A DNA stretch of 64,000 nt from Escherichia coli (GCF_016903815.1 NZ_CP069973.1); one strand, 5' to 3'. Shown: positions 3,606 to 55,550, counted from the first letter of the stretch. The notes: generated from the letters alone by a model not told the origin. Numbers and translations: made by a program.

Positions 3606-4343
3606 TTAGACTCGTTTTAACAAGGCATGAAAAAAATAATAAATGATATATTTAATTGAATGTAAGAATGAAAGGCGACGGTTTTTTCTATAAATATTCC
3701 ACTGCCAGGCTATTGCCTTAATTTTATTTGAGGATAAAGAATGTTCATTTACACGATATTTAGCTAAACACTCTTGTATACAATAAGCTCTATTGGTCAC
3801 TGATATTATATCCAACCACATTATATAATCTTCATGTCCTTCATTTACTTGGTTAAATATACCCAGTTTTTCCCTATTATATATACCTGTCAGGTTACCA
3901 ATAAAATTACTTTTAAGCATCATATCATAAGTTATTATTTCTGGTGAAATTCGAGCATTAATATATTCTTTTTCATTTGAAAATGTTATAAAATTACTGC
4001 ATACCAAATCCCAACCGTCTTCTAATTTCTCCATCTGTAAAGAAAGTTTGTTTTTAATCCACATATCATCACTATCTATAAAGGCAACATAATTGCCTTT
4101 ACATATATTAAGTGCAATATTTCTTGATTCCGCGACGCCTTTGTTATTTCTGTTTTTAATTACTGTTATTCTTTCATCTTGAAATTTGCCAGCTAATTCG
4201 AATGTATTATCATGCGATGCATCATCGATAATATATAGATGCCAATCCTTAAAGTCTTGATCAATTACAGAGTTTACAGCTTGTTCTATTGTTGCAGACG
4301 CATTATAAGCAGGCATTATTATCGAAACAGTTTCTCTTACCAT
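3606..4343 (-). CDS. Glycosyltransferase, family 2-like (O-antigen)
   Basis: 245 aa; N-terminal IIMPAYNASATIEQAVNSV...YIIDDASHDNT and a DSDD motif typical of GT-A fold GT2 enzymes. Confidence 0.7.
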   Translation of the reverse strand: MVRETVSIIMPAYNASATIEQAVNSVIDQDFKDWHLYIIDDASHDNTFELAGKFQDERITVIKNRNNKGVAESRNIALNICKGNYVAFIDSDDMWIKNKLSLQMEKLEDGWDLVCSNFITFSNEKEYINARISPEIITYDMMLKSNFIGNLTGIYNREKLGIFNQVNEGHEDYIMWLDIISVTNRAYCIQECLAKYRVNEHSLSSNKIKAIAWQWNIYRKNRRLSFLHSIKYIIYYFFHALLKRV

Positions 4344-4346
4344 ATT

Positions 4347-5399
4347 TTATATTCCAAGTAGTGATATCCATTTATGAATAATTGCATCAGCATTGTATTT
4401 CCTTGAATTTTTAATAGCATTAGTACTAAAAATGTTTGATAAATTATCATCAGAAGTCAATTTTCTTAACTTCTGTATAAAAAGCTCTCTGTTTTTAAAA
4501 GGGATAAGAAAACCATTAACATTATCAGTAATAATTTCTGCCGGGCCAGTTGGACAATCATATGCAACACTCGGGATTCCAAAACTCTGGGACTCAATCA
4601 ACACCATAGGTAATCCTTCATATAACGAAGTCATCGCATATATTTTGGCAGCATTATAGTAATTGCAAATTTCATCTGTTGTTTTAAACATTTTGATAGA
4701 TGACATTCCAGCTATGGCTTTTTCAAGAATCCTTTTATTAGGGCCATCACCAATGATATATAACGTCCAATTAGGTATATTTGCCTCATGCCAAATTTCA
4801 ATCAACTCATTAAAATTCTTTTGCTCTGTAAATCGTCCAACAGCGATCACAATATTTTCCCGTTGGTCATATGGTTTTATTATGTTATTGGATGTATCAA
4901 ATGGATTAATATTTGGTATTTGAATAACGTTTTTAATACCATATTTTGTAGTTAATAAATTATAATCATGCGAAGTTAAAACAATTACTTTTTTTGCTAT
5001 GTAATATGAAAATATTTTTATTAGCTGTATTGCTTTTTTAAAACTATTTAAGCCTACATGCTCATGGAAATATATATCATGCAGCCTGATAGCTTTCGCT
5101 AATATTCCACACTCCAGCGATAAGCGTCCCATCGACTCAACAATAACTTTATGTTTATTCTTCTTACAAAAAATCAAATAGGACAATAGAGAATAATAGC
5201 GCCATCCATTTCCATATTTAACAGAGATTTTATTTGATAAGAAATAGAAAGGATTGGCATGTTTTTTTTGTAATGAGAAAATTTCGACCTCAGCATTTTC
5301 TATATTACTTGATAATATATTTGATAATAATGCTGTAACTCTTTCTGTACCGCCCTTATTAGTAATATCAGAAATAATGAAACTAATTTTATTTTTCAT
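4347..5399 (-). CDS. Glycosyltransferase, GT-B fold (GT4-like) (O-antigen)
   Basis: 350 aa; C-terminal TSLYEGLPMVLIESQSFGIPSVAYDCPTGPAEII resembles the EX7E donor-binding region of GT4 enzymes. Confidence 0.65.
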   Translation of the reverse strand: MKNKISFIISDITNKGGTERVTALLSNILSSNIENAEVEIFSLQKKHANPFYFLSNKISVKYGNGWRYYSLLSYLIFCKKNKHKVIVESMGRLSLECGILAKAIRLHDIYFHEHVGLNSFKKAIQLIKIFSYYIAKKVIVLTSHDYNLLTTKYGIKNVIQIPNINPFDTSNNIIKPYDQRENIVIAVGRFTEQKNFNELIEIWHEANIPNWTLYIIGDGPNKRILEKAIAGMSSIKMFKTTDEICNYYNAAKIYAMTSLYEGLPMVLIESQSFGIPSVAYDCPTGPAEIITDNVNGFLIPFKNRELFIQKLRKLTSDDNLSNIFSTNAIKNSRKYNADAIIHKWISLLGI

Positions 5400-50480: not shown

Positions 50481-52421
50481 TCAGCAACGGCTTAAATCAG
50501 CCTGCGCCTGAGCCAGTTTTTCTGCCGCCTGACGTAACGGTTCCATCAACGGCATGGTCCGTGCTGGAGCATGAAGGCGGAATCGCTGCAACTCTGTCGC
50601 ACCGACAGTCAGCGCCGATTCCAGCCGATGTCGTTTGGCGGCCATTTTTGCCATTACCGCTTGTCTGTCTGCAGGCGTTACCGCTTCGTTCGGCCTGAAA
50701 ACAAAACGGCGTTCGCAACTCGCTTTCCAGTCGATAACCGCCTGGGTCAGATGATCACCAAAACCTTTCACTTGCTTAACGCTCCGTCGGGTAACGTCTG
50801 CCGCCGTTTCAATACCAAAGGACCGTAACGCCGCTTTACGCGCAGGGCCAACGCCGGGAATAGAGGCAACATCAATAAAAAATCCCTCCAGAAACTTCTG
50901 CTTCTGCCGTTCCCTTGCGGTGTCCTGAAGTGCTGCCAGAGCGCGTTTCTCTTCTTCCGGTAACCCGAGAATTTCGTCCTTCATTTTTTCGAGCATCGCC
51001 CGTTTGGCGATAAAACCTTCCAGCCCGCCCAACTGTTGGATCTGGCTGACTAAATGGTCATAGTCCATTTTCGCGCGATTAAATGCCTCACGGCGTTGCT
51101 GGATTTCTGCTTTATAAGCTTTGCTTGTCAGACTGCCAATAATCCAGATAGCCGCCAGCACAGGAACCAAAATGATATAACGCGGTTCTGCCTGAAGGCC
51201 GCAAAGCAACAGCGATAACGCTGACAGTGCGATCTCAATCAGAATGATGTATTCGCGCCGTAACAGGCCTAAAGGAAGCGGCCTGCCAGCAGCCTGGAAA
51301 TGATCGGGTAATGGCAATTGCAATGCTGGCGGTGCTACTGACGCCATCACCATCGCCCAGACTTTCGCCAGCACAAAATCACCGCTGGTGGTAATGACCT
51401 CTTCGCCGAGATCAATAAAATAGATAACGCCTTGATTATCCAGCGCACACCACGGGCAGTCAGTCAAATGACCGGGGTAAACATGCATTGCCGAAACGGT
51501 ACATTTCTTTAACTGTTGGCGTAGTAAATCAAGTGCCGCTACCCACGCTTTTGCCGTCGGACGCCCGGTTGCCACGCCACTTTCCGTGAATGCCTGCTGA
51601 AACATGGCTTCAACATCACCCGGTAACATCGACAGCGGAATAGATCGTGGCGGCGGTTTTAAACCACGTCGCTGATTATCTGACGCGTAGGCATAACGGA
51701 AATGGGCAATATCCGTCTCCAGTGCATTACCCGCATCAGAGATAAGCGGTACACCGGAATAAGGATGCCGCCCACCAAACAAGACGTGAAAAATCAGCAA
51801 CGCAAGGCCAAAATTATCGTGATTCGCGGTGCGTTCAAAGCCGACAAATGATGGCAAGGTTTGTAGCTCTGGCGGCGTAAAATGCGACACGCCGACTTCG
51901 CATAAATGCAGTGTGCCATTGGCGTTAATCTGAAAGGAGTCGCTATCAATCAACACCACTTTGCTGTCACGGCCTACCATAAAGCTGTTCTGGTTTACGT
52001 CACCCACGACGTGCTCGTGAACCGTAGCAAAAGATGAAGCAATATTGCGTGCAACATAGAGTAGAAAATCCCACGCACAATGAGGGTAACGTTGACGACG
52101 ATGTGCCGGGCTATAGATCATATGAATCGGTTCTTTACCAGAAACTTTTGGCATCATAAAACCGATAACCTTTCCGCCTCGTCCACCGTGAAGCGTTGCC
52201 TGCGGCCAGGCGACATAATTCAGCAACTGTGCGTCAGCTGTCGCAGCCATAAAGGCAAGTTTGTCCTGTTTTAAGGCGGGTGGCGGCGTGTGATAAATCT
52301 TGGCGACGCTATCGACAAACTCCTCGATATCATAAACCGCACCTTCACCACCTTTGCCCAGTTCACGCCCGAGAGTGGTCAATTCATCTGTCGATGTAAA
52401 TACTTTTATATTTTTCTTCAT
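50481..52421 (-). CDS. yegI: Hanks-type protein kinase-like membrane protein with C-terminal HhH-like motifs
   Basis: 646 aa; N-terminal kinase-like domain with atypical motifs, two hydrophobic helices (about aa 385-430), coiled-coil, and a C-terminal IPGVGPARKAALRSFGIETAADV helix-hairpin-helix-like motif. Confidence 0.8.
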   Translation of the reverse strand: MKKNIKVFTSTDELTTLGRELGKGGEGAVYDIEEFVDSVAKIYHTPPPALKQDKLAFMAATADAQLLNYVAWPQATLHGGRGGKVIGFMMPKVSGKEPIHMIYSPAHRRQRYPHCAWDFLLYVARNIASSFATVHEHVVGDVNQNSFMVGRDSKVVLIDSDSFQINANGTLHLCEVGVSHFTPPELQTLPSFVGFERTANHDNFGLALLIFHVLFGGRHPYSGVPLISDAGNALETDIAHFRYAYASDNQRRGLKPPPRSIPLSMLPGDVEAMFQQAFTESGVATGRPTAKAWVAALDLLRQQLKKCTVSAMHVYPGHLTDCPWCALDNQGVIYFIDLGEEVITTSGDFVLAKVWAMVMASVAPPALQLPLPDHFQAAGRPLPLGLLRREYIILIEIALSALSLLLCGLQAEPRYIILVPVLAAIWIIGSLTSKAYKAEIQQRREAFNRAKMDYDHLVSQIQQLGGLEGFIAKRAMLEKMKDEILGLPEEEKRALAALQDTARERQKQKFLEGFFIDVASIPGVGPARKAALRSFGIETAADVTRRSVKQVKGFGDHLTQAVIDWKASCERRFVFRPNEAVTPADRQAVMAKMAAKRHRLESALTVGATELQRFRLHAPARTMPLMEPLRQAAEKLAQAQADLSRC

Positions 52422-52618
52422 AATGTTTCAAGGGCAGTCATATTATATTTCAATGAATAATAACACTGCCCATTATAATTATTTCTATATGGGAAGAGTC
52501 CACTCAAGAATAAAAATGATAATGTAATTTCATCAGGATACAATTCAATTCCAACCTGATAATGATTAACTTCCACAGGTTTTGCTAACTTTTACTACAC
52601 AGAGATTCTGGAGAAAAA

Positions 52619-53080
52619 ATGAAAAAGATATTACTTATGTTGAGTCTGCTATTTTTTACTACCGCGGGCTTTAGTGAAGTTTCGGATACGTTAGTGACGG
52701 GAGGTTATGATAAACAAGCGATGTCTGACGCCATTCAACATGCGCGGAAAGAAACTGATAAATTCATCGAGGTTATGAATAAAAAAGATGCCGATACTTT
52801 CGCGGTCAAAGCCCCGATAACCGATCACGGAAGAACAGAGCATTTCTGGCTTACGGATGTCACTTATTCTAACGGCATGTTTATTGGCGTAATAAGCAAT
52901 GACCCTGGTATTGTTACAAACGTAGAATATGGTCAGGAGTGGAAAATCAAGAAAGAAGATATTTCAGACTGGATGTATACGCGCGGGGATAAAATTTACG
53001 GCGGTTATACCATTGATCCTTTATTGGTCACCTATCCAAAAGAAGAAGCCGACGAGCTAAGAGCAAAATTAGTTCGCTAA
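52619..53080 (+). CDS. yegJ: Secreted DUF2314-like protein YegJ
   Basis: 153 aa with a signal peptide (MKKILLMLSLLFFTTAGFS); divergent from yegI. Confidence 0.75.
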   Translation: MKKILLMLSLLFFTTAGFSEVSDTLVTGGYDKQAMSDAIQHARKETDKFIEVMNKKDADTFAVKAPITDHGRTEHFWLTDVTYSNGMFIGVISNDPGIVTNVEYGQEWKIKKEDISDWMYTRGDKIYGGYTIDPLLVTYPKEEADELRAKLVR

Positions 53081-53144
53081 CCAGCCATTATATTAATTGC
53101 TTAAACTGGCGGTTGAACTGTTGTCTTCAACCGCCATGCGATGT

Positions 53145-53906
53145 TCATTCTGTCCACAGCGCCAGTGCCAACGTTTTATCATCATCGGTACGCTCGTTTA
53201 CCGCCGGGCCGGACAAAAACTGCTTTAACAATTCAGGTAATAAATCGAGTTGTTCCTGCGTTGCTGACGCCAGCCCATTGAAAAACGGGGTAAAGAAAGG
53301 CACATGGGGAGAATTATCCAGCATATTTAACGCCAGCCGCTGGATACCATCCGTAAATGCTGCAACTTTGTGCGCACGCTCAGTGCTGGTGAAAGTTTCC
53401 AGTCTGGAAACCGCATCTTCATCGGTAATGAAGTGCGTCATGTTGGCATATTCACCCACCATCGGCGTGAGCGGCAGTTGCAGACCGTGCCCCAAATCTA
53501 CCACCATGCCGCCATCGCCAATCTGCATAATCAAGGTGCCGTCAGGCGATGAAATCAGTCCCAGAAATGTGCAGGCAAAATCGCGAACCTCTAATTCTTT
53601 TGCCTCTGCCTCGGCAAAAAGTCGCTGACGAATGGTCAGCACAATATCCGTGGCGAGGACATCATTAAGCCCCAATTCCCCGCCCTGCACTTTTTGCGAC
53701 ATATAAGCCATCGCTTCATTGACGGCGAGCATCGCGCCTTCGCCACCCTGCGAGACACTGCCTGCGCCATCAGCGACAAATACCGACAATAATGGCTGCT
53801 GGTCATTTAACCAGGCAACCTGCATCTGGCAGGCATCCTGGCAAGGCAAGTCCGCGCTGATGTGCGACGTTCCAACGGTTGATGCATAGACCAGACGCCA
53901 GCTCAC
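53145..53906 (-). CDS. pphC: PP2C-family Ser/Thr protein phosphatase
   Basis: 253 aa (yegK); PP2C-like metal-binding Asp motifs (VADGAGS, DGGM); overlaps yegL by 4 nt. Confidence 0.8.
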
Positions 53907-54562
53907 ACTGACGTCCAGCCTTTTGGCGCTTCCAGCACAACTTCCGTTCCCGGCGTGGAGTGGGAAACCGAACGCAGCGAACTGGATAACCAGCTAAACA
54001 GTTCACGGAATTGTAATCCCTGCAGTGGCAAAGGCTGACGAACGCTGATTTGTGCCAAAGTCTTCATATCCGCCCCCTGAACACCGATGGAAAAGAAGGC
54101 AAACTTCTTATCTTCTTCCCCCTGAAACACTTTGTTGGCGGCAGCCTGCCACTCATCGGTTGGAGCGCCATCGGTGATCAGGAAAATCCACGGGCGATAA
54201 TAGGAAATACCATTGGCGCGATACTCACGTTTGCGCTCCTCAACCATATCCAGGGCTTTGGTAATGGCGGCCCCCATTGGTGTATCGCCCTGGGCAAACA
54301 GGATGGGCGGGAAAAAATTAGCGGCGCTGGTAAAGGGTTGTTCCACATGCACCGGGCCGAACGTCACAATACCGAGTTCCACTCTTTTTAAGGCCAGCGA
54401 ATCGGCAAGCAGCTCATCGCGAAAGGTAACCAATCCGGCGTTAAGTTCATTAATGGGTCTACCGTTCATAGAACCAGAAACATCCAGCAGCAAAATGCAG
54501 GGGCAACGTGGTTCCGGGTTACTGGCAAAATCGCTGGTGGCAAACGTGATTTGTTCGCTCAT
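53903..54562 (-). CDS. yegL: von Willebrand factor A domain protein (TerY-like)
   Basis: 219 aa; MIDAS motif DVSGSM plus downstream Thr/Asp residues of the vWA fold. Confidence 0.8.
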
Positions 54563-54739
54563 AAGAAATCCTTTCTTAGAGAATTATTGAGGTCCGGTAT
54601 CATACCGACTGCAACAATGAAATATGAGCAGGCAAAGCAACTTTCAGAATTAGGCCCGGCGGCGCAGAAAATTTTGCTATTCGCCTCGCAAGAACGGAGA
54701 GCCGTCGATTGACACTAAGGGCGGAGTGACATAATTTCA

Positions 54740-54885
54740 GGAGTGAGGGTTAGGGAGAGGTTTCCCCCTCCCCCTGGTGTTCTTAGTAAGCCTGGAAGCT
54801 AATCACTAAGAGTATCACCAGTATGATGACGTGCTTCATCATAACCCTTTCCTTATTAAAAGCCCTCTTCTCCGGGAGAGGGTTT
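54740..54885 (+). ncRNA. sibA: Sib antisense sRNA, copy 1 (antitoxin of ibsA); ends approximate
   Basis: Plus-strand promoter-like TTGACA (54709..54714) and CATAAT-like -10, transcript fully antisense to the ibsA ORF, hairpin ccctcttctccgggagaggg at 54863..54882. Confidence 0.55.
54783..54842 (-). CDS. ibsA: Type I toxin IbsA (19-aa hydrophobic peptide)
   Basis: Reverse complement translates MMKHVIILVILLVISFQAY-stop, identical to my recollection of IbsA. Confidence 0.8.
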   Translation of the reverse strand: MMKHVIILVILLVISFQAY

Positions 54886-55077
54886 CCCGTTTCAGCGTCC
54901 CGCTGAAATCGTCGGCTTACCTCCTTTCGCCCTGAATGCAGTCTATCGCTAACGCGTGAACAAAATAGTTTCCTCTGTGATTATTGCGTAACGACTCGCA
55001 AAGAATATTTGCTGGCAGGATCGCAGACTGCAAAGCCTGCAGATTGACAATCTTATCGTGAAGGCATAATTTCAGGA

Positions 55078-55220
55078 GTGAGGGTAGAGCGGGGTTTCCC
55101 CCGCCCTGGTAGTCTTAGTAAGCGGGGAAGCTTATGACTAAGAGCACCACGATGATGAGTAGCTTCATCATGACCCTTTCCTTATTTAAGGCCCCTTCCT
55201 CGGGAGGGGCTTTCCCGTTT
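55078..55220 (+). ncRNA. sibB: Sib antisense sRNA, copy 2; ends approximate
   Basis: Second repeat unit with TTGACA at 55044..55049 and a CATAAT -10; antisense to ibsB. Confidence 0.55.
55114..55170 (-). CDS. ibsB: Type I toxin IbsB (18-aa hydrophobic peptide)
   Basis: Reverse complement translates MMKLLIIVVLLVISFPAY-stop. Confidence 0.8.
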
Positions 55221-55405
55221 CAGCGTCCCGCTGAAATCGTCGACTTACCTCCTTTCGCCCTGTATGCAGTCTATCGCTGACTTGCGGATAAAATAGTTTC
55301 CAGTGTGATTATTGCGTAACGTCTCGCAAAGAATATTTGCTGGCAGGATCGCAGACTGCAAAGCCTGCAGATTGACAATCTTATCGTGAAGGCATACTTT
55401 CAGGA

Positions 55406-55550
55406 GTGAGGGTAGAGCGGGGTTTCCCCCGCCCTGGTAGTCTTAGTATGCTGGGTAGCTAATCACTAAGAGCACCACGATGATGATCCACTTCATCATG
55501 ACCCTTTCCTTATTTAAGGCCCCTTCCTCGGGAGGGGCTTTCCCGTTTCA
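55406..55550 (+). ncRNA. Sib-family antisense sRNA, copy 3; ends approximate
   Basis: Third repeat unit with TTGACA at 55372..55377 and CATACT -10-like hexamer; antisense to the third ibs ORF. Confidence 0.5.
55443..55499 (-). CDS. Ibs-family type I toxin, third copy (variant peptide)
   Basis: Reverse complement translates MMKWIIIVVLLVISYPAY-stop; same architecture as IbsA/IbsB with substitutions at positions 4-5 and 15. Confidence 0.7.
   Translation of the reverse strand: MMKWIIIVVLLVISYPAY

Follow-up and report, generated by a model that had tools for sequence, protein, structure and literature searches.

The region between positions 50481 and 54562 of a 64,000-nucleotide (nt) stretch of Escherichia coli DNA (GCF_016903815.1, NZ_CP069973.1; hereafter the window) raises the question of whether three of its genes, yegL, pphC (yegK), and yegI, form a signaling cassette of the TerY-P type, and what such a cassette would do in the cell. 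The region contains four open reading frames (ORFs), yegI (-), yegJ (+), pphC (-), and yegL (-). An original prediction, made from the sequence alone, had assigned the genes of the triad to a kinase, a PP2C-family phosphatase, and a von Willebrand factor A (vWA) protein, with yegK and yegL overlapping by 4 nt, and all ORFs were found as described. Since all three parts are homologous to components of the classical tellurite-resistance (ter) cluster and their order is conserved, we conclude that the locus is very probably a TerY-P-type cassette, as far as this can be judged from sequence comparison. The definition of TerY-P systems (Anantharaman, Iyer and Aravind 2012) was taken from later papers citing it.

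As a reference for the triad, we used the ter cluster of an enterobacterial plasmid, which encodes TerY, TerX, TerY, TerY-C, a PP2C phosphatase, and a kinase. YegL matched the Pfam VWA model (E = 2.2e-9) and aligned nearly end to end with ter-cluster TerY in BLASTP (31% identity over 181 amino acids [aa], E = 5e-26). The residues of its metal ion-dependent adhesion site (MIDAS), D27, S29, S31, T94, and D131, are intact, as predicted, and at least 97% conserved across the family. Matches to YegL occurred in 2330 plasmid records, mostly of ter-cluster plasmids. PphC matched PF13672 (PP2C_2; E = 1.3e-52) and the ter-cluster PP2C (E = 3e-5), and its metal-binding aspartates D46, D131, D186, and D242/D243 are present. 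Using a family profile for YegI, hhalign recovered the ter kinase with 99% probability (E = 8e-18) over 325 columns (YegI residues 7-344) and paired the YegI motif CPWC with CPYC of the ter kinase, part of a C...C...CPYC zinc knuckle. Thus, the region contains the parts by which TerY-P systems are recognized: a TerY-like vWA protein with a MIDAS, an adjacent PP2C gene, a kinase with a C-terminal zinc ribbon, and co-conservation of the three. The predicted relationship to the TerY-P triad was thereby borne out for each protein.

The kinase assignment required particular care. Profile searches proposed along with the prediction recovered PP2C_2, VWA, and DUF2314 by Pfam, but the Pkinase model had no match to E. 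coli YegI and yielded "weak" matches only in distant relatives; the sole Pfam match to YegI was a helix-hairpin-helix (HhH) domain (residues 515-551, E = 7.6e-4). YegI lacks the canonical HRD and DFG motifs and has GD and DSD instead. Nevertheless, a profile of 55 family members matched 639 solved kinases over the catalytic loop, the DFG equivalent, and an APE-like region. A bilobal kinase fold with the beta3 lysine, catalytic aspartate, and metal-binding aspartate is present, PknB was among the top structural matches, and K41, D141, N143, and D159-x-D161-S162 are invariant across the family. Moreover, YegI was shown to be a Mn2+-preferring Ser/Thr kinase which autophosphorylates in trans on activation-segment serines, and PphC to be an active PP2C phosphatase that dephosphorylates YegI (Rajagopalan and Dworkin). 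Because the family profile, the invariant catalytic residues, and the published biochemistry agree, the assignment holds despite the Pfam result. The catalytic loop (window positions 51986-52003, YegI residues 141-146) reads D-V-N-Q-N-S in Escherichia, Klebsiella, Piscinibacter, and Chromobacterium, versus D-V-N-Q-G-N in most family members; the absence of an Mg-binding asparagine ("missing" in the literature) hence characterizes this sub-lineage, not the family as a whole.

Beyond the kinase domain, the zinc-knuckle residues C307, H313, C322, and C325 were invariant in 47 of 47 sequences. PhoA-LacZ fusions showed that YegI crosses the inner membrane twice and that both termini are cytoplasmic (Rajagopalan and Dworkin). 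The C-terminal half was wholly helical in high-confidence models, with two motifs typical of HhH at P-G-V-G 522-525 and G-F-G 553-555 (about nt 50697-50888). Some family members have different or extended C-termini (700-1158 aa; L007:5959-8118 on a Sphingobium plasmid, P0149, P0174, and P0216), one of them with an annotated C4 zinc finger of the topoisomerase type. The putative nucleic-acid-binding tail thus seems to be swapped as a module within the family.

To what extent the three genes behave as a unit was clear from their distribution. In a library clustered at 50% identity, the YegI kinase family comprised 9211 representatives when the cutoff was E <= 0.001 and 2998 when it was E <= 1e-30, and most of the top 150 members shared an architecture of ~645 aa. 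With one genome scanned per species, the family was present in at least 566 species. Those listed included alpha-, beta-, gamma-, and deltaproteobacteria, Actinobacteria, Firmicutes, Cyanobacteria, Chlorobi, Acidobacteria, Planctomycetes, and Synergistetes as well as Archaea, with many Methanoregula/Methanomicrobiales. Among the best 80 loci, a complete run of vWA, PP2C, and kinase genes on one strand was found in 72, so that the condition set out as refuting the prediction, a lack of co-conservation as a unit, clearly did not apply. Of the other eight, five were cut off at a contig end, two had DNA inserted between the vWA gene and the PP2C gene, and one gave a partial vWA match. The median intergenic gaps, determined in 48 loci with cleanly called ORFs, were -4 and -1 nt. 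A conserved fourth gene was not found: no other family recurred in more than 9 of the 85 loci analyzed for recurrent neighbors, and the cassette is thus self-contained. It also occurred in 83 plasmid records, of which 9 were E. coli records of apparently chromosomal sequence. Large plasmids with the cassette came from Pseudomonas (pQBR103), Agrobacterium/Rhizobium, Cupriavidus, and Sphingobium; in every case, vWA and PP2C genes were located upstream. We also considered carriage by phages and rejected it, as the cassette was essentially absent from phage genomes, which gave one weak partial match only.

The three proteins evolve at different rates. Median identity to the E. coli proteins was 63% for YegL (range, 57-85%), 40% for PphC, and 39% for YegI, and YegL, the most conserved component of the cassette, was still ~60% identical in methanogens. 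Conservation of YegL so far above that of PphC and YegI suggests that it contacts something more invariant than these fast-evolving partners.

Table 1. Features of the yegI-yegL region and their positions in the window
Feature	Position	Strand	Description
yegL	53903..54562	-	219 aa; TerY-family vWA protein, stand-alone; first gene of the cassette
pphC (yegK)	53145..53906	-	253 aa; PP2C-family Ser/Thr phosphatase
yegJ	52619..53080	+	153 aa; DUF2314 protein
yegI	50481..52421	-	646 aa; atypical Hanks-type Ser/Thr kinase, anchored in the inner membrane by a helical hairpin
YegI kinase domain	51522..52421	-	~aa 1-300; G-rich loop G22-G27, K41, catalytic D141/N143, D159-S-D161-S162 replacing DFG
YegI zinc knuckle/ribbon	51432..51515	-	~aa 303-330; C307, H313, C322-P-W-C325
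YegI transmembrane helical hairpin	51102..51269	-	about aa 385-440; AlphaFold2 helices 389-409 and 415-465
YegI cytoplasmic C-terminal module	50484..51101	-	aa 441-646; coiled-coil helices, two putative HhH motifs, long terminal helix
Low-GC replacement segment	52368..53153	.	786 nt, 37.7% GC; replaces 53 nt of the contiguous pphC/yegI junction
yegJ promoter	52516-52544	+	sigma-70-like, ATGATA-17-TACAAT; consensus scan
Candidate yegI promoter	52507-52478	-	sigma-70-like, TTGAGT-18-AATAAT; consensus scan
10-bp inverted repeat	53108..53135	.	ggcggttgaa-N8-ttcaaccgcc, between the convergent yegJ and pphC ends; read from sequence

In the window, the operon is not contiguous: yegI is cut off from pphC by a replacement segment, the opposite-strand yegJ gene, and a hairpin (Table 1). 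Segment borders were set against a yegJ-less genome (L005), in which pphC and yegI overlap by 4 nt. The segment, poor in GC compared to 52% in the flanking genes, comprises yegJ, an AT-rich spacer of 197 nt with a divergent promoter region, the hairpin, the new last codons of PphC (2-3 codons), and a new YegI N-terminus of 18 codons, MKKNIKVFTSTDELTT, which substitutes MKPTLYTATGECVT. The new N-terminus can still be recognized as a homologue of the one it displaced, and a different yegI-type locus is therefore the probable source of the donor DNA. The segment was present in 1924 of 5426 complete E. coli genomes (35%), with divergence inside it reaching 5-10% among genomes, and the contiguous form accounted for 65%. 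In K-12, Shimada et al. mapped an RpoD promoter whose sequence the yegJ promoter site matches exactly, and they also flagged H-NS binding in the yegI-yegJ spacer; an H-NS site at this position agrees with the repeated failure to detect transcripts. The hairpin was not called by a simple terminator scan, as it has no T-run, yet it is likely to act as a bidirectional terminator-like element and to uncouple yegI from yegL-pphC transcription. In the window, yegI is thus predicted to be decoupled, in transcription as well as in translation, from the genes of its vWA and phosphatase partners. Separation by a second, yegJ-independent route was observed in two loci of other genomes, where the vWA gene is parted from the PP2C gene by an insert of ~6.9 kb (L029, vWA at 1749-2312) or ~4.2 kb (L058, vWA at 4258-4905).

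The prediction had grouped yegI, yegJ, yegK, and yegL together. Whereas yegI, yegK, and yegL hold up as a unit, yegJ turned out to be a later insertion outside the module: it was found in none of 78 non-Escherichia triad loci and in only 35% of E. coli genomes, and we rejected it as a module part. The same applied to yegD, which among triad loci occurs only in Escherichia. YegJ is a DUF2314 protein (Pfam E = 2.9e-25) whose overproduction is published to induce yegD. In Superficieibacter electus (L096:3453-5462), where the triad is missing, yegJ is found immediately downstream of a gene for a yegD-like Hsp70, both on one strand; polymorphic-toxin immunity genes (SUKH, Tli3, and Imm52) come next. 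Because of this adjacency and the published induction, the real partner of yegJ is suggested to be yegD and not the triad.

A second peculiarity of this strain lies within the kinase itself. YegI lacks two residues (GH) between H137 and V138, so that VHEHGHVVGD reads VHEHVVGD (window positions ~52007-52018). The deleted position directly precedes the catalytic loop and is kept in every aligned homologue from E. coli to betaproteobacteria. The in-frame loss of 6 nt is flanked by CACG direct repeats and looks like a slippage event between them. AlphaFold confidence fell locally to 85 at residues 131-140. A junction-spanning query detected the allele in 98 of the 5426 E. coli genomes (1.8%), which look like a clonal sub-lineage.

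Some form of the locus was present in 5417 of the 5426 genomes, and a 5-kb stretch was 100% identical to E. coli strain 7/2, whose RefSeq labels are protein kinase YegI, YegJ family protein, phosphatase PphC, and vWA protein YegL. The ratio of nonsynonymous to synonymous substitution rates (dN/dS) was 0.04-0.08 for yegL, 0.12-0.15 for yegI, and 0.13-0.16 for pphC, compared to 0.04-0.05 for yegD. All three cassette genes are under purifying selection, and the cassette is therefore being maintained. Occasional inactivation despite this overall selection is evident from many shortened YegI forms (508-550 aa) in the protein database and from an IS150 copy inside the yegI-pphC region of one E. coli strain (NZ_CM129037.1); a PP2C-YegI fusion-like protein (P0035) was also found. 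In the E. coli strain E69 clade (L032), PphC is 82% identical at the protein level with a dS of 0.77, whereas its neighbors yegL and yegI retain 96% and 93% identity (dS, 0.26-0.28), which points to allelic replacement or recombination centered on the phosphatase gene. Enterobacterial hosts among the best 80 loci were only Escherichia and Klebsiella spallanzanii, and identity drops from at least 90% inside Escherichia to ~62% in the next relatives. Both observations fit a horizontal acquisition at the base of Escherichia with subsequent fixation in the genus.

The genes flanking the locus in the window are yegE, alkA, and yegD upstream and three Sib/Ibs toxin-antitoxin repeats and mdtA downstream. 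The repeats matched SIB_RNA (Sib antitoxin/Ibs toxin, type I) as three tandem copies on the plus strand of the yegL-mdtA interval (54709-54857, 55044-55186, and 55372-55514; 139-150 bits each). Sib copy number differs among strains, and a yegJ-less genome likewise has three annotated ibs genes. K-12 has two copies at this interval (sibA and sibB).

In other genomes, recognizable defense or mobile-element genes were found beside the cassette in roughly half of the sampled loci. In Pseudomonas alcaligenes, a complete Gabija system lies 57 nt away (GajA, 3e-215; GajB, 1e-221), and in a Synergistaceae metagenome-assembled genome, PDC-S01 (9e-176) is located 76 nt downstream. Further neighbors comprised an SLFN-type helicase, MazG-like, McrA-like, SNase, BrxR, and JetB proteins (Piscinibacter), AbiH, a KAP NTPase, and TniQ/TniB (Chromobacterium), BrnA, GmrSD, SymE, and HsdS (K. 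spallanzanii), an RtcR-like CARF regulator and a type II methylase (Chromatium), mad8 (Parvibaculum), and DUF262 together with an Hxs radical-SAM cluster (a Rhizobium rhizogenes plasmid). On this plasmid, the triad directly follows the HxsB/HxsC/HxsA His-Xaa-Ser radical-SAM cluster (L008:1401-4503), and in another locus it lies near a radical SAM/SPASM gene (L092:1065-2534). As guilt by association and not as a statistic, these neighborhoods are suggestive of a defense role.

How might such a cassette work? One scheme would be a phospho-switch in which PphC strips the autophosphates of YegI and thereby holds the kinase off. The C-terminal coiled coil and HhH pair of YegI may form a dimerizing, DNA-binding sensor at the cytoplasmic face of the inner membrane, and a trigger such as incoming foreign DNA would let autophosphorylation outpace PphC. 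The MIDAS metal site of YegL could then bind a phosphorylated or acidic ligand, YegL serving as adaptor, substrate, or effector, and the output might be interference with DNA transactions and restriction of phages or other mobile DNA. In this strain, with the yegJ segment parting yegI from yegL-pphC and the GH deletion in the kinase, such a switch would probably be rewired and weakened.

From its neighborhoods and relatives, we regard membership of the family in the defense or conflict repertoire as the likeliest reading, at about even odds, and a defense role of the E. coli cassette as plausible. A more far-reaching reading combines several elements: yegL-pphC-yegI would be the founding member of a cross-domain TerY-P subtype whose membrane kinase senses DNA via its HhH tail and acts against phages or other mobile DNA; defense finders would miss it, nearly every E. 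coli would carry a silenced core copy, and the yegJ split would uncouple kinase from phosphatase. We hold this combination to be less likely than not. The defense reading in general can draw on a genome-wide screen in which overproduced YegL and YegI each scored as DNA-damage promoting, but that screen scored unrelated membrane proteins, too. Several other observations likewise weigh against a defense role. With the PADLOC TerY-P models, YegL reached TerY only at E = 0.013 (13 bits, partial), and PphC had no match. The searched literature reports no phage or other phenotype for yegL-pphC-yegI, and expression is described there as barely detectable, with transcripts repeatedly undetected. About half of the sampled loci had no defense neighbor. 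In E. coli, the neighbors are of the housekeeping type (yegD, alkA, and mdtA), and the locus belongs to the core genome, an unusual setting for defense systems.

The near-universal presence in E. coli, purifying selection, and chromosomal housekeeping surroundings would also suit an endogenous module signaling stress or physiological state (e.g., stationary phase, envelope or DNA stress) to host targets, with no role against phages or mobile DNA. Rajagopalan and Dworkin state that expression is low in stationary phase and that yegI was mutated recurrently in the long-term evolution experiment; both points lead the same way, as do several loci of other taxa that lack defense neighbors. We consider this rather unlikely in view of plasmid carriage, a self-contained cassette in varying contexts, often beside Gabija, BrxR, Abi, restriction-modification, or PDC genes, and an uneven occurrence across domains, in which E. 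coli and betaproteobacterial proteins share ~60% identity, as do the YegL proteins of E. coli and methanogens; the near absence from other enterobacterial genera among the best 80 loci does not favor it either. A different question is whether the copy in this strain is a disabled relic, that is, split, H-NS silenced, and with its kinase crippled by the GH deletion. This is unlikely in our estimation and is compatible with any of the readings at the family level, so that the likelihoods given here are not meant to add up to one. While the split allele abolishes translational coupling of pphC and yegI, the K-12 spacer has an H-NS site with transcripts undetected, and other strains have insertion sequences and shortened forms, none of the three ORFs in this strain is shortened, and their catalytic, MIDAS, and zinc residues are all in place. 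To judge from its frequency and internal divergence, the allele with yegJ is old as well as common and thus not obviously deleterious, and the inserted DNA brings promoters of its own. Loss of GH, at a site that all aligned homologues retain and where model confidence dips locally, with only 98 genomes affected, would fit a relic if it lowers kinase activity. Finally, the cassette could be a metal- or tellurite-type stress module resembling TerY of the ter operon, with YegL as a metal sensor or chelator tuned by kinase and phosphatase. Among named proteins, the closest relatives of YegL are indeed the TerY paralogues on tellurite-resistance plasmids, a MIDAS binds metal, Mn2+ is preferred by the kinase, and TerY-P has been proposed as a metal-sensing switch. 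Against this stand the absence of ter genes (TerD/TerZ/TerC families) or any other recurrent partner with the subtype, the absence of ter genes near the E. coli locus, and neighbors elsewhere that belong to nucleic-acid defense and not to metal handling, and we judge it very improbable.

As the prediction had acknowledged, the gene set is not a new one. Two of its three proteins are biochemically characterized, and the TerY-P concept covers its architecture. The present analysis contributes tests of homology for each of the three parts and shows how large the YegI subtype is, how far it extends across domains, that PADLOC does not see it, and that its neighborhoods are rich in defense genes. 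It further contributes the unusually high conservation of YegL, the exact structure of the yegJ replacement and how often it occurs, and the GH deletion. E. coli has few Ser/Thr kinase-phosphatase pairs. Their placement in a very large, strictly syntenic, and horizontally spread family, which is frequently found beside known defense systems and is missed by PADLOC, opens their role to direct tests in the best genetic system. Should the cassette be a defense module, this TerY-P subtype would belong in defense catalogues, and an immune cassette would have turned into part of a species' core genome. The contiguous, yegJ-split, and GH-deletion alleles constitute a natural series of ready genetic contrasts, which also carries a warning, as K-12-type laboratory strains have the rewired, yegJ-split form.

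How, then, does the cassette compare with known systems? With the ter clusters of IncHI2-type plasmids, it shares the three protein families, including PP2C-family phosphatases, and their order. The ter version comprises several TerY paralogues, TerY-C, and TerD-family genes, a PP2C of 587 aa, and a soluble kinase of 499 aa, whereas the E. coli version is a minimal set of three genes without ter neighbors, whose kinase is extended by a membrane hairpin, coiled coil, and HhH tail.

Protection against T7-like phages is established for the validated TerY-P systems (Gao et al. 2020; Costa et al. 2024), in line with the mention in the prediction of a TerY-P system reported to protect against phage; in Pseudomonas aeruginosa, protection was directed against T7-like podophages, and cultures did not collapse at high multiplicity of infection (Costa et al. 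2024). The TerY-P system of Gao et al. 2020 and the "TerY-P variant" of P. aeruginosa L1171 (Costa et al. 2024) resemble the E. coli triad as three-gene cassettes of vWA, PP2C, and Ser/Thr kinase genes and are located in defense islands. The kinase of the validated system is described as fused to a C-terminal oligonucleotide/oligosaccharide-binding (OB) fold, in contrast to the all-helical C-terminal half of YegI. The comparison with curated defense models proposed along with the prediction was negative for PADLOC, whose TerY-P models did not recognize the proteins. Altogether, PADLOC yielded no meaningful match for any of the five proteins tested, with only a spurious MkoA match for YegI (E = 0.0047), and all NCBIfam matches of the triad were subthreshold. 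Because the TerY-P models miss these proteins and the YegI tail is helical instead of an OB fold, the E. coli triad is, by its predicted architecture, a different subtype from phage-validated TerY-P. The PADLOC result hence means "not Gao-type TerY-P" and is not evidence against defense. As to a possible link of the P. aeruginosa variant with the YegI type, primers of the variant matched in none of the triad loci nor in the metagenome collection, and the 120 proteins most closely related to a Pseudomonas homologue of YegI included none labeled as P. aeruginosa.

A triad of vWA, PP2C, and kinase-plus-zinc-ribbon proteins is also found in the TerY-P modules of McrBC-related CoCoNuT systems (types II and III-A), where it has been interpreted as a signaling add-on to nucleic-acid-targeting defense. 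The E. coli triad, in contrast, stands alone, with no CnuB/C/H/E or McrBC genes adjoining it or recurring in the 85 loci.

At the level of mechanism, the cassette recalls bacterial Hanks kinase/PP2C pairs (e.g., PknB-PstP and PrkC-PrpC) and, in type VI secretion, the PpkA-PppA-Fha1 pathway of threonine phosphorylation, in which a membrane-bound eukaryotic-type kinase is reset by a co-encoded PP2C phosphatase, PpkA itself carrying a vWA domain. Compared to these kinases, YegI has no extracytoplasmic sensor, has GD in place of HRD and DSD in place of DFG, and carries its zinc knuckle and HhH module in the cytoplasm. Unlike the vWA domain inside PpkA, the vWA component of the E. coli cassette is a separate and very highly conserved protein.

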